Shown here: piece after piece, positions 6,949 to 11,294 of the stretch
How positions within the stretch are numbered: the stretch's first letter is position 1
How the letters are laid out: the number at the start of each line of letters is the position of its first letter
NCBI GenBank assembly: GCA_963805085.1
Contig: CAWDTA010000003.1
Location: 96,001-160,000 of the forward strand
DNA length: 64,000 bases
Source of the DNA: an uncultured Veillonellaceae bacterium
GTDB taxonomy: Bacteria; Bacillota; Negativicutes; JARBTT01
Reading direction: 5' to 3'
Translations under genes and position numbers: made by a program
The notes under the pieces: model-generated
Database searches by the model: none
What the model saw: only the letters and a program-made list of their open reading frames with translations
What the model was told of the DNA's origin: nothing

Positions 6949-8367
6949 TTACCAATAACCGAGAACTTTCCACCATACACCACCGACACCGACCCAGATA
7001 ATGATGTGCATGATTGAGACACCAAAACCAATTTTCCACCAATCTGCTTGCGTAACATAACCAGAACCAAAATAAACTGGAGCTGGGCCTGTACCAAAAT
7101 GCGTTAAACAACCGCAGATATTAGAAGCAAGTGCTACAACAAAAGCGGAAATAAATGGTGGAGCACCTGAAGCTACGCCTAAGGTGATTAGAGCAGCATA
7201 CATTGCCGTTACGTGAGCTGACATACTAGCAAAGAAGTAATGACTATACAAGTAAATTACGAAGGATAATACTACCGCGGTAAGCATGCCTACACCAACC
7301 ATTTGGTTTTCTAATATCTTAGCAAACCAACCGATAAAACCAGTTTTATTGAGGTAATCAGACATTAAGATAACACTACCAACCCAAATTAAAGTATCCC
7401 AGGCTCTCGTTTCTTTTATTACATCTTTCCAAGTTAAAACTTTAGTCGCGAGTAAGATACATAATCCCAGAAAGGCAATTAAAGTGCCGTCTAGCTTCGT
7501 CATCGAAGCTGTAGCCCAAAGTATTAATAGCATAATAAATACAAAGAACATAATTTTTTCATTCTTGGACATTGGTCCCATTTCTTTTAAGACATTAGCG
7601 GCCATTGTTTTTGCTTCAGGCGTGTTTTTGATTTCAGGAGGATAAAATTTGTAAATTGCGTAAGGAATACCAATTAACGCAACAGTACCAGGAACCACAG
7701 CAGCGATAAACCAACCCATCCAAGTGATATCCACATCTAAAACTTTTTTCGCCATTGCAGCAGCAATTGGATTACCAACCATTGCTGTCATAAACATTGC
7801 AGATACAACGAGGTCAATATGAAAGACCGAAGTTACTAGAAAAGCACCGATTTTTCTAGCAGATTCACCTGGTTTTGAATCAAAGGCTTCAGCTAAACTT
7901 TGTACAATTGGGAAAACAAGACCACCAGCCCGCGCTGAGTTAGATGGAATTGCAGGCCCGATAATTAAATCACTTAAAGCTAAAGAATATACAAGTTTCA
8001 GACTGCTATCACCAAAGGATCGCATTGCCATGTAAGCGATCCTTCTGCCTAGACCAGTAATGATAAAGGCTCTAGCTAAAATGAAGGCGGAAACGATCAA
8101 CCATACAGTACCGCCACTGAAAGCGGTTAATACTTCACTGAATTTTAACGTATAAGTTAATGAACATGTGACAATTGCAATTAAAGCTACGGAACCAGCT
8201 TCTATTGGTTGTAAGATAAAACCAACTACTGTACCCATAAAGATTGCGAATAAGTGCCAAGCTTGAGGTTTTAACCCTTCTGGCACTGGGTAAAACCATA
8301 AAATAAGTACAATTCCGACTGTTAATATGGCAGCAGGTATTTTGCTTTCGCCAAAAAGTTTTTTCAT
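6949..8367 (-). CDS. DASS family anion (di/tricarboxylate) permease, CitT/TtdT/YflS-like
   Basis: PSNSARAGG, SAMFMTAMVGNP and THFGTGPAPVYFGSGYV motifs. Start at ATG 8367 after AGGAG. Confidence 0.92.
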   Translation of the reverse strand: MKKLFGESKIPAAILTVGIVLILWFYPVPEGLKPQAWHLFAIFMGTVVGFILQPIEAGSVALIAIVTCSLTYTLKFSEVLTAFSGGTVWLIVSAFILARAFIITGLGRRIAYMAMRSFGDSSLKLVYSLALSDLIIGPAIPSNSARAGGLVFPIVQSLAEAFDSKPGESARKIGAFLVTSVFHIDLVVSAMFMTAMVGNPIAAAMAKKVLDVDITWMGWFIAAVVPGTVALIGIPYAIYKFYPPEIKNTPEAKTMAANVLKEMGPMSKNEKIMFFVFIMLLILWATASMTKLDGTLIAFLGLCILLATKVLTWKDVIKETRAWDTLIWVGSVILMSDYLNKTGFIGWFAKILENQMVGVGMLTAVVLSFVIYLYSHYFFASMSAHVTAMYAALITLGVASGAPPFISAFVVALASNICGCLTHFGTGPAPVYFGSGYVTQADWWKIGFGVSIMHIIIWVGVGGVWWKVLGYW

Positions 8368-8386
8368 ATGCACTACTCCTCGTATA

Positions 8387-8430
8387 ATAAGTTTTGTAAA
8401 CAATAATCCGCCATTGTTTACAAAACTTAT
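8387..8430 (+). repeat. perfect 18-bp inverted repeat at the start of the IS110 left end (5' hairpin of the predicted ncRNA)
   Basis: ataagttttgtaaacaat-aatccgcc-attgtttacaaaacttat. Confidence 0.9.
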
Positions 8431-8675
8431 TTTTTATTTTTTAATGCTTAAAGGAATCCCTTGATGCTAAAATATTTCTAAGAGATTTTAGCAAAGGTAA
8501 CGTCTTATCCTCCTTGCGAAACCTTTTGGTTATTGCTTTTAAAGCTTGACGCCTGCCTTATTCATCAAATACCGCTTACACAGATGTTGCGTCTCTTGGC
8601 GAAAGCTTTCCAGCAAATTTACTTTCACAGATGAATGCTTATTATGCGAGGCTGCGGTCAGTGAATAAGATCAGG
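8394..8675 (+). ncRNA. predicted IS110 bridge RNA (5' hairpin, target-binding loop about 8496-8557, donor-binding loop about 8557-8669); ends approximate
   Basis: Downstream of the circle-junction promoter. Stems: cgtc/gacg, aacc/ggtt, cttattca/tgaataag, accgc/gcggt. 8638-8650 is complementary to donor 8379-8391 at 12/13 positions. Confidence 0.75.
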
Positions 8676-8727
8676 GTATTCCTTTTCTATCTTTCTTATT
8701 CTCAGCCAGAAAGGTGGTGACATTTCT

Positions 8728-10008
8728 ATGAAGAAGGCGGATCTTCTTTCTACTTTGTTTGTGGGAATTGACATAAGTTCCCGCGAAAATGTCGTTTGCG
8801 CTATTGATTTTGAAGAGCAAAAACTGTTGCGATTTACTGTGCCCAATAATCAACCAGGTGCAGTTGAAATGGCTAAAAAGTTTCATGATTTTTTTTCTGA
8901 AAATCATGATCTTAATAAGCTGGTTGTTGCCTTAGAATCTACATCTTTCTATGGTATTCACATAGCTAACTACTTATCTTCCTGTGAATTATTGATGCCA
9001 TTTGACACTCATGTTTACTGTATAAATCCCAAGATGGTTGCCAATTACAAAAAGTCTTATATCGGTCTAGGCAAAACTGATGCAATTGATTCTTTTATTA
9101 TCGCTGATTTTGCTAGAGTTGGCAGAATTACCTCTGCTCCTTGGCGCGGCAGTCAATTTTTAGCTTTGCAGCGTCTAACTCGCCATCGATTACATATAGC
9201 TCGTTCTCTTACTCGTGAGAAAACCTATATGCTTTCAAACATCTTTCTTAAATTTAGTGAGTTTTCTATTCTCGACGATGATAAGCAGCCCTTTTCTAAT
9301 AACTATGGCGCTGCCGCTTCTTCGGTTTTAACTGATTTTCTTTCTACCGAAGATATCGCTAACATGCCGATGGCAGCACTAATTGAACACATTTGTAAAA
9401 AAGGCAAAAATCGTTTTGCAAATCCTGAACACACAGCTTCTTTACTACAGCAAGCCGCTCGCAATTCCTACCGATTGGATAAATGTTTATACGAGCCTTT
9501 AACTATCTCTATCGCCTCATCATTTAACCTTATTTCAGCCTATGAATCTGAAATGAAGGCTATCAATAAGGCTATTGAGAAAACGCTTCGGGGACTTGAT
9601 CCTAACGCTTACCAAAGCCTTTTATCCATTCCTGGAATTGGTCCGGTTTATGCTGCTGGCATTATTGCTGAGATTGGTTCTATTGAGGCCTTTAAGTCTC
9701 AGGAAGCTCTTGCTAAATATGCTGGTCTTGTCTGGCGTGAAAACCAATCTGGCAATTTCAGAGCCGATGATACCATCCTTTCAAAAGCTGGCAATACTTA
9801 TCTCAGATACTATTTAATTGAAGCTGCAAGCCATGTAAAGAATCATTTAGCTGAATATGCAGCTTTTTACCAGAAAAAGTATGATGAAGTTAAAACTCAT
9901 CAGCACAAACGCGCACTCGCACTTACTGCTCGTAAATTCATCCGGCTGATTTTTGGATTGCTGGCCAACCATCAGCTTTACTCTCCAAGTAGAGTAAGCC
10001 AAATTTAA
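8728..10008 (+). CDS. IS110 family transposase/recombinase
   Basis: GIDIS, ALEST and KTDAID (DEDD RuvC-like); SIPGIG and QSG catalytic Ser domain; GNTYLR. Confidence 0.96.
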   Translation: MKKADLLSTLFVGIDISSRENVVCAIDFEEQKLLRFTVPNNQPGAVEMAKKFHDFFSENHDLNKLVVALESTSFYGIHIANYLSSCELLMPFDTHVYCINPKMVANYKKSYIGLGKTDAIDSFIIADFARVGRITSAPWRGSQFLALQRLTRHRLHIARSLTREKTYMLSNIFLKFSEFSILDDDKQPFSNNYGAAASSVLTDFLSTEDIANMPMAALIEHICKKGKNRFANPEHTASLLQQAARNSYRLDKCLYEPLTISIASSFNLISAYESEMKAINKAIEKTLRGLDPNAYQSLLSIPGIGPVYAAGIIAEIGSIEAFKSQEALAKYAGLVWRENQSGNFRADDTILSKAGNTYLRYYLIEAASHVKNHLAEYAAFYQKKYDEVKTHQHKRALALTARKFIRLIFGLLANHQLYSPSRVSQI

Positions 10009-10433
10009 TAGTTCCATTATTTTACTTTTTCTTTGTTTTGAAGAAGAAGCTTGTTTAGTGCACCCATTTTTTACGGATTGCTTACAAAATTTATTTTTTA
10101 TGGGCTTGACATATTACCAGATTGCTTGTTATAAATTTTAAAAAATTTATGAAAATACATTGATAAATTTTATTAATTAAATCATATAAAAATAAACAAG
10201 CAATGTAAAATCTAAAAAAATTATTGTTGATTATCATATAATTGAATGATTATTTAGATAATTTCTAAATTTAACAGTTTTTTATTTATATAATTCGTAT
10301 AAAATGAAAATTGCTAAACAGCAAAAAGTGAGTACTTGAAATAAAAAAGATATTTAAAATATGCTAAATATTTTAAATATCTTTAATAAAATTGTTTTGG
10401 CGATGGATGTTTTAATGATCATTATAATGCTAA

Positions 10434-11294
10434 TTAGAATGGTAGGTTTTTCACAAAATTAACAAACAATTTGACGATAGGAAGTTCAAGGGTGTCATTG
10501 TTATAAATCATCCAGGTCTTTCTTATAATATAGTTACCGGTGGCATCTTTTAAATTTAATTTGTGGATATTTGGAATGTTATCAACAATGCGTGATGGCA
10601 AAATGGCATAACCCAAACCGTTTTTGACCATTTCTTTACAAGTTGCTAATTTATCAACATGCATATTGATGGTTGGTGGTTTCAAGAAGTTTTCACGCCA
10701 CCATTTATCAATCTGTGATTTTAATAAATAGTCACTTTGATATTCGATACGGGGCAAATTTGGCAATTCATTAAAAATAAATGGTTGTGTAGAAGCAATA
10801 CATACAGGTTCTTCATACAATAGATCCATATTTTTGCAACCGCCATAATCAACGCTGACGAATCCGACATGGGTCTTTTTATTATAAATAAGACTAAAAA
10901 TATTTTTTGTCCAATCCGTGGTCATATTAAAATCAGCATTTGGATAATTTTTCTTGAATAGTTTTAATACATACGGTAATGTGTACGTAGTGAAATAATG
11001 AGAAGCACCAATTTCTAATGTTCCAGAGTCGATCTTAGATAAGTTGCGTACTTCATTTTTGATGTTGCTTAAACGTGAAACCATTTCAGAAGATGCTTTT
11101 ACGAGAAATTCACCTTCGGGAGTGATCTGGATTCCCTTGGTACTTCTATGAACAATTTGTACACCGAATTCTCTTTCAATATGTTGTAGCCGTGATGTTA
11201 AAGCAGGCTGTGACATATATAATAGTTGGGCGGCTTTGGTTATATTTTTTTCTGAATTCAGTGCTTGAATGATAAGCCAATCACGATCTTCCAT
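10434..11294 (-). CDS. LysR family transcriptional regulator
   Basis: NITKAAQLLYMSQPALT HTH. Confidence 0.95.
   Translation of the reverse strand: MEDRDWLIIQALNSEKNITKAAQLLYMSQPALTSRLQHIEREFGVQIVHRSTKGIQITPEGEFLVKASSEMVSRLSNIKNEVRNLSKIDSGTLEIGASHYFTTYTLPYVLKLFKKNYPNADFNMTTDWTKNIFSLIYNKKTHVGFVSVDYGGCKNMDLLYEEPVCIASTQPFIFNELPNLPRIEYQSDYLLKSQIDKWWRENFLKPPTINMHVDKLATCKEMVKNGLGYAILPSRIVDNIPNIHKLNLKDATGNYIIRKTWMIYNNDTLELPIVKLFVNFVKNLPF

Follow-up and report, generated by a model that had tools for sequence, protein, structure and literature searches.

The window analysed here, a 64,000-nt stretch of DNA from an uncultured Veillonellaceae bacterium, contains an insertion sequence whose left end very probably specifies an IS110 bridge RNA with an anti-Shine-Dalgarno-like left guide, which places the element directly 5′ of the Shine-Dalgarno sequences (SDs) of genes. 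This reading draws on the boundaries of the element, an uninterrupted copy of its site in a genome of the same genus, the ribosome-binding-site (RBS) context of its junctions, and covariation both within the RNA structure and between guide and flank, all of which were observed directly.

We propose that the bridge RNA sits in the 347-nt left end, upstream of the gene for a DEDD/Tnp recombinase, with its first loop (8496–8557) reading the target and its second loop (8552–8675) reading the joined ends of the element. The 5′ strand of the first loop, UUAUCCUCCU, is identical in sequence to the anti-SD core of 16S rRNA and would therefore pair with the DNA strand that encodes SDs, akin to the pairing of the ribosome with mRNA. 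Recombination at a CT core would set the element directly 5′ of AGGAG, with the gene directed away from the transposase gene; it would keep the SD, spacer, and start codon and insert 1.75 kb between them and the promoter region.

The element, its boundaries, and its target gene

By its sequence, the element is an insertion sequence of the IS110 family, IS110 group. Its transposase (recombinase) gene, at 8728–10008 on the + strand and preceded by the SD GGTGGTG (8713–8719, +), encodes a protein of 426 aa that matches Pfam models PF01548 (DEDD_Tnp_IS110, E = 1.9e-29) and PF02371 (Transposase_20, E = 1.5e-22), as well as the NCBIfam model NF033542, “IS110 family RNA-guided transposase”, at 229.5 bits (cut-off 140). 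The nearest matches of solved structure are the IS621 and ISCro4 recombinases. In the alignment with IS621, LSKAGN corresponds to MSKAGH, which holds the catalytic serine, and KTDAIDS to KTDTVDA, which holds DEDD aspartates; the first D and the E of the DEDD motif fall outside this alignment and are based on the Pfam match.

The same genome holds, besides the window copy, two full copies of 100% identity and a truncated one. Alignment of the three full copies and the truncated one fixed the boundaries of the IS body at 8381–10124 (+), a length of 1,744 bp, or 1,746 bp with one copy of the core. A CT dinucleotide lies on either side, at 8379–8380 (left core copy) and 10125–10126 (right core copy), and is found at both junctions in all copies. 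The element is without terminal inverted repeats. Its left non-coding end (8381–8727, 347 nt) is longer than its right one (10009–10124, 116 nt), which is a trait of the IS110 group (PMC11208160). In the truncated copy (C2:1949416-1950435) the element stops after ~1,020 nt, with unrelated sequence beyond, and a TGA lies within the transposase frame.

A genome of the same genus, G001, carries the uninterrupted site, ...catatgcacgactcCTtgttataaa..., with a single CT. Its flanks are 97.8% identical to those of the window over 178 nt on the left and 95.4% identical over 303 nt on the right, with exactly c-t-t between them. Thus, insertion was precise and used a single CT core, which occurs once before insertion and at either junction afterwards, as in IS621 (PMC11208160). 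No copy of the element was found in the contigs of G001, an 84% complete genome. The empty site also bears out the insertion site tactcCTtg given in the initial annotation of this DNA, which had been made from the sequence alone.

The site lies at the start of a gene for a Na/sulfate-type (DASS) symporter on the − strand (6949–8367; PF00939, E = 1.4e-147). The start codon of this gene, ATG at 8365–8367 (−), opens an ORF of 472 codons and lies 8 nt after its SD, AGGAG (8376–8380, −), an assignment based on the sequence, the copies, and the empty site; on the + strand the SD reads CTCCT, its final CT being the left copy of the core. The insertion has shifted the promoter region (10128–10433) 1.75 kb from the symporter gene, and the SD, spacer, and ATG are intact. 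Directly upstream of the region cut off from the symporter gene, and on the same strand, is a LysR-family regulator gene (10434–11294, −). All effects on the target gene are predictions, and the rewired expression proposed in the initial annotation is an overstatement. As no terminator-like site was predicted on the − strand within 8300–10300, read-through across the element into the symporter gene may be possible. No outward promoter directed from the left end toward the target gene was detected by a consensus scan, and none was convincing by eye.

A predicted two-loop RNA in the left end

The target loop (8496–8557, +) had originally been folded by eye, and all of its coordinates proved exact: an outer stem of ggtaacgtc (8496–8504) and gacgcctgcc (8548–8557), a left guide ttatcctcCT (8505–8514), an inner hairpin (8516–8536), and a right guide ttttaaAG (8537–8544). 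Folded alone, the 62 nt adopt the shape then described, namely the outer stem, an 11 × 11-nt internal loop, and the inner hairpin, with an energy of −14.7 kcal/mol compared to −8.56 ± 2.42 kcal/mol for 200 shuffled sequences (z = −2.54), two of which were as stable. In the minimum-free-energy fold of a longer transcript, the inner hairpin and both 11-nt loop strands are retained together with the CGUC/GACG stem; at the outer end of the stem, GGUA/UGCC pairing is in competition with a helix, CCUG/CAGG, by which the second loop is closed. The entire 248-nt leader is of ordinary stability (z = −0.03).

We examined covariation on an alignment of 19 homologous left ends (A2), comprising the window element, members from Pelosinus, Selenomonas, Megasphaera, Eubacterium, Lachnospiraceae, and Paenibacillus and relatives, a Chloroflexia MAG, and ISBth166. 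The left boundary of the more remote relatives L040–L043 and L051 (Paenibacillus, Brevibacillus, and Cohnella) was not located within 420 nt upstream, and these members are included in A2 and stand outside the junction counts given below. On its own, RNAalifold recovered the inner hairpin alone from the 19-sequence alignment, and the structure was therefore set by hand from the single-sequence fold and then counted. Across six helices with 35 pairs, 77.6% of cells were paired (65.7% in shuffles), and 21 of the 35 pairs showed a compensatory change. The covariation score was 0.368 compared to 0.190 in shuffles, none of 500 reaching the observed value, and controls with slid partners scored 0.08–0.14, so that covariation among homologous left ends, named as a check when the loop was first described, upholds it. 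In the outer stem, 3 of 4 pairs show compensatory changes, as do 5 of 8 in the inner hairpin, and the loop strands are single-stranded in 19/19 sequences, with CUCCU conserved on the left and AAG on the right. A scan of 8000–10600 against Rfam at E-values up to 10 gave three chance-level matches and no bridge-RNA family.

The second loop spans 8552–8675 (+), with helices at 8552–8555/8672–8675, 8557–8565/8661–8669, and 8571–8575/8654–8658, and is supported by both fold and covariation, its main helix showing compensatory changes in 7 of 9 pairs in A2. The putative right donor guide, CUUAUUAUGCGAG, occupies 8638–8650 (+); this segment, cuuauuaugcgag, is reverse-complementary to the CT core and the 11 nt that open the left end (CTcgtataataag) at 12 of 13 positions, the one mismatch being a G opposite T. 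The 5′ strand of the loop, UUACACAGAUGUUGCG (8576–8591, +), is a candidate left donor guide, recognized by eye and partial: its likeness to the right-end sequence TTACCAGATTGCT is discontiguous, and a T-to-A change in the right ends of L036–38 is, by eye, mirrored in this strand. Because the second loop matches the ends of the element, as in the IS621 arrangement (PMC11208160), we assign the first loop to the target and the second to the donor. G8651 could pair with the C that precedes the target core after strand exchange, at the position that the handshake concept would give it (10.1101/2025.05.14.653916), and the base following each core-pairing AG would fit the same idea.

The RNA is presumably made from a promoter within the left end, for which TGcTAAAAT at 8465–8473 (+), identified by eye, is a candidate of the extended −10 kind; the block TG-n-TA(A/C)AAT is, by eye, conserved among close homologues. 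At the extreme left end, a predicted 19-pair hairpin followed by a T tract (8386–8447, + strand only) resembles a terminator and may act as an insulator. A second, putative promoter would arise on circularization: the right end carries an outward-facing −35 box, TTGACA (10106–10111, +), that is conserved in homologues, the left end carries a −10 box, TATAAT (8383–8388, +), and joining the two ends would form TTGACA-17 nt-TATAAT, the core lying within the spacer. IS621 has a natural promoter with its −35 box in the RE-LE junction region (PMC11208160).

In the window itself, positions 8361–8388 combine the flank (complement of ATGAAAAA) with the TATAAT of the element into a promoter-like TTTTCA-16-TATAAT directed into the element. 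Weak −35 boxes like TTTTCA could often be provided by lysine-rich N-termini.

Among public sequencing runs, the best match contained 0.17 of the sampled words. Among contigs assembled from such runs were those of a multi-copy relative, from one isolate run, and short metagenomic pieces; no circle-junction joint was seen in them. One 151-nt metatranscriptome contig of a relative spans 8455–8601 at ~93% likeness, which is no proof of transcription.

Guides, flanks, and Shine-Dalgarno sequences

The rule used in the initial annotation to derive a target from the two guides is the one published for IS621: up to and including the CT core, the left guide reads the same as the top strand of the target, and the right guide is the complement of the right target (PMC11208160). 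The left target guide, UUAUCCUCCU (8505–8514, +), with its core CU at 8513–8514, corresponds in sequence to the top strand of the left flank, an assignment that draws on both junction and covariation data. It is anti-SD-like, as had been suggested, sharing CCUCCUU with the 3′ tail of the host 16S rRNA (...gaucaCCUCCUUucua); the Selenomonas variant of the guide is CACCUCCU. At 35 junctions, CCUCCU of the left guide corresponds to (C)CTCCT in the flank.

Guide and flank also vary together. In a permutation test that pooled genomes differing in base composition, cognate left guide–flank pairs agreed at 140 of 208 non-core positions, compared to 125.2 ± 3.5 after flank shuffling (p ~1e-4, n = 26), and with one site per distinct left guide the count was 47 compared to 38.4 (p = 0.006, n = 10). 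Rare guide variants are mirrored in the flank in L029 (uuccccCU/ttccccCT), L034 (cacucCU/cactcCT), and L035 (caucCU/catcCT). In the copy on contig C1 (C1:355266-357016), where the left guide lacks one C (uuau-cuccu), the flank ctctcCT matches this shorter guide at one more base than it would the intact guide, a single anecdote.

CCUCCU also lies in the 5′ leader of the transposase mRNA, where it is complementary, with G-U pairs, to the GGUGGUG of the transposase SD (8713–8719). It might be kept there to mask that SD in cis, its likeness to the flanks being secondary. We regard this as highly improbable, since CCUCCU is single-stranded, within the internal loop, in minimum-free-energy folds, varies together with the flanks from lineage to lineage, and stands at the left-target-guide position of a two-loop RNA, for which guide function has been shown in the family (PMC11208160).

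The right target guide, UUUUAAAG (8537–8544, +), has support for AAAG (8541–8544), which pairs with CTTT, and for this part only. AAG is nearly invariant among homologues and pairs with CTT at most of 22 right junctions. The 4–5 nt located 5′ of it are variable, and five variable positions match the right flanks in 45 of 100 comparisons, compared to 40.4 in permutations (p = 0.08, n = 20). Of the full target that had been predicted, the left part is upheld by guide–flank covariation, and the right part has support for AAAG only; the 14-nt non-core target has no perfect copy in this genome, where the best site matches at 13 of 14 positions and high-scoring sites are not mainly RBSs. The window copy sits at a site that, by eye, agrees with the guides at about 6 of 14 non-core positions. 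Effective recognition appears to be short and tolerant, about (C)CTC-CT-T(T), and so short a motif would occur at hundreds of sites in any genome.

Pairing this short and mismatch-rich relative to that of IS621 (PMC11208160) leaves room for a different view, in which the protein, or DNA features of translation starts, choose the site and the likeness between loop and flank is coincidental. We consider this very unlikely: guide changes specific to a lineage recur in its flanks, the second loop corresponds to the ends of the element as a guide model requires, and the recombinase belongs to an RNA-guided family (NF033542; PMC11208160). Base pairing, rather than protein contacts, presumably picks the site.

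To survey insertion sites, we gathered left junctions of the element and its relatives, 35 of them distinct. Nine are in this genome, four of them belonging to the element itself, three to a left-end family related at 73–78% identity (including a roughly 250-bp mini-element), and two to ISBth166-like left-end remnants. Another 15 are in Pelosinus propionicus DSM 13327, which carries no fewer than 15 copies and whose transposase fragments are 97–98% identical to the window transposase, and four are in a Selenomonas MAG; Megasphaera, a Eubacterium MAG, L028, L035, L037, Paenibacillus eucommiae, and ISBth166 contribute one each. We scored a junction as RBS-adjacent if ATG, GTG, or TTG followed 4–10 nt past the AGGAG-equivalent and opened an ORF of at least 60 codons. 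The flank was too short to judge at three of the 35 junctions, which leaves 32.

By this definition, 29 of the 32 evaluable left junctions are at RBSs upstream of start codons, in agreement with the landing site proposed in the initial annotation, and for the element itself the count is 17 of 19 (four junctions in its own genome and 15 in Pelosinus propionicus). The gene at RBS-adjacent junctions is always directed away from the transposase gene, and the SD remains with the gene. The three misses (L030, L070, and L075) have no convincing gene and count against the reading, as does the poor match of the window site outside ACTC-CT-T. Outside the 32, L034 is at an RBS and L046 is without a convincing gene.

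The same definition applied to all motif occurrences in this genome was satisfied by 551 of 1,898 AAGGAG sites (29%) and 188 of 432 AAGGAGG sites (44%), which gives a binomial P of 5e-13 to 3e-8 for 29 of 32, with the background taken from one genome. The excess of RBSs over the motif background is real. Extended guide matches lift the RBS fraction of CTCCTT sites from 27% to 38–56%; because longer matches raise it so little, the 91% RBS context of occupied sites goes beyond what pairing alone would give. Loss of harmful intragenic insertions is the simplest account of the excess.

Taken further, this account would have the loop contribute just a 6–8-nt motif preference, with intragenic CTCCTT insertions being lost and those 5′ of an SD tolerated, and we give it a substantial, if somewhat less than even, chance of being right. 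In its favor, RBS-like sites make up only 29–44% of motif sites as opposed to 91% of occupied ones, longer guide matches add little, the window site agrees poorly with the guides past the short motif, and the lack of a predicted − strand terminator-like site within 8300–10300 makes read-through from a host promoter into the target gene conceivable. However, the 15 Pelosinus junctions resemble a recent burst and 13 of the 15 are nonetheless at RBSs, and an insertion that severs a gene from its promoter should often be harmful as well. Since the motif is the SD complement and covaries with the guide, selective survival refines guided placement 5′ of SDs rather than replacing it.

A bolder version of guided placement, which we consider rather unlikely, is that in one clade of bridge-RNA recombinases a copy of the anti-SD has become fixed as the guide, with an RBS excess beyond survivorship that reflects either a preference for active translation-start regions or built-in harmlessness. 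In the harmless design, the SD would be kept, no antisense terminator is predicted, and read-through might yield both expression of the target gene and an antisense RNA to the transposase. With the anti-SD tail of 16S rRNA copied in its guide, an element would find hundreds of landing pads in every host entered. The relatives examined come from Negativicutes, Clostridia, and Bacilli, and those farthest removed (Chloroflexia, L046) lack a convincing gene.

Several further loci in this genome bear traces of related elements. The roughly 250-bp mini-element (C2:1165300-1165545, −) is a non-autonomous derivative of the related element (73–78% identity) and is located at CATaagattaccttCCT. It has a left end with the hairpin, the promoter block, and a target loop (guide uuucgccuccu), fused straight to a right end, and has neither donor loop nor transposase. 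Isolated left-end fragments of the same 73–78% family, at C2:1166545 (−) and C2:625630 (+), abut CTCCT 8 nt from an ATG or GTG that opens a long ORF. Remnants of a third left-end type (CT|cgtataatatatttaagttcaa...) occur at C2:1965359 (−) and, ~6.3 kb ahead of the window start, at C3:89718 (−); both are at CAT-N7/8-...TCCT beside ORFs of 345 and 396 codons, and one has an ISBth166-like right end, TTGACATACTACCG, about 590 nt downstream. The 3′ ends of the eight 16S rRNA genes of this genome each contain cacctcCTtt, a good guide match in the correct orientation, and 0 of the 35 junctions are in rDNA.

Comparison with known systems

The window element resembles IS621 of E. coli in its DEDD and Tnp recombinase, in the two-loop bridge RNA of its long left end, in a donor loop that matches the joined ends, and in a putative promoter split between the right and left ends (Durrant et al. 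2024, PMC11208160). Protein similarity between the two recombinases is only distant (E = 4e-9) and lies mainly in the C-terminal domain. The targets differ, being the SD complement here and ATCAGGCCTAC for natural IS621, and so do the mismatches at natural sites, which are many in the window element compared to 0–2 for natural IS621-type targets; unlike in IS621, the right guide of the window element is informative for 3–4 nt only (PMC11208160). Its many sites and many mismatches make it a natural low-specificity guide set for the study of mismatch tolerance in bridge recombinases.

Elements of the IS1111 group, whose recombinases belong to the same superfamily, use seekRNAs to choose repeated, conserved sequences of the host or of mobile elements (Siddiquee et al. 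2024, PMC11187229), and differ in having the guide RNA in the right end and long subterminal repeats (PMC11208160). In the seekRNA study, “ribosome binding site” occurs in a cloning context only (PMC11187229). The window element would, by comparison, have a natural bridge-recombinase guide aimed at a signal that precedes most genes rather than at repeats like REP or attC.

Among named elements, ISBth166 of Bacillus thuringiensis plasmids is the closest relative, with 44–46% aa identity over 98% of the protein. It shares a left end beginning CT|cgtata, a loop strand uuauuccuccu, the junction CATgttttattcctccCT, and a right end with TTGACA, and is located at CAT-N8-CCTCCCT. It differs in belonging to another branch of the host phylum and in its longer, divergent leader, and the comparison covers one junction. 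In an Enterococcus faecium plasmid element, L105 (NZ_CP066647.1 26275-28048; 42% aa identity), the guide uuuccuccu matches 9 nt of the flank, and the element lies just 5′ of the SD of an ArdC-like gene whose annotated start is 7 nt away. In that one record, L105 lies within a − strand gene row mobP2-hyp-hyp-ardC. This 42%-identical element is widespread on E. faecium plasmids, with 419 Enterococcus plasmid records. An SD-directed guide suggests how such elements remain mobile after transfer between distant hosts.

For genome annotation, such elements are predicted to mark true start codons, and they may silence or re-route the adjacent gene. A literature search found no link between a bridge or seek RNA guide and the Shine-Dalgarno sequence; the supplementary tables of PMC11208160, which give target motifs guide by guide, may contain CCTCCT-type targets. 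The same search gave no link between the target motif of IS900 and a bridge-RNA guide. Eight Mycobacterium plasmid records are among the weak protein matches of the window recombinase.

IS900, an IS110-family element of Mycobacterium avium subsp. paratuberculosis, is described as inserting between the SD/RBS and the start codon, and as having a full-length antisense ORF, hed, that borrows host signals. Its published target motif, CATGNNNNNNTCTCCTT, is the complement of an SD plus start codon (PMC8141618), which overturns the suggestion in the initial annotation that no described IS110 element follows this targeting logic. The window element shares with IS900 a target that holds the complement of SD and start codon, a location at translation starts, and a single orientation (PMC8141618). 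It differs in landing 5′ of the SD, in a variable spacing (4–10 nt) between SD and start codon, and in having no hed-like antisense ORF that spans the element, the longest − strand ORF within 8381–10124 being 78 aa. Translation-start targeting by an IS110-family element was therefore already known, and the window element is a real and well-supported further case, in which the decades-old observation of IS900-like insertion at translation starts would be explained through a guide RNA.
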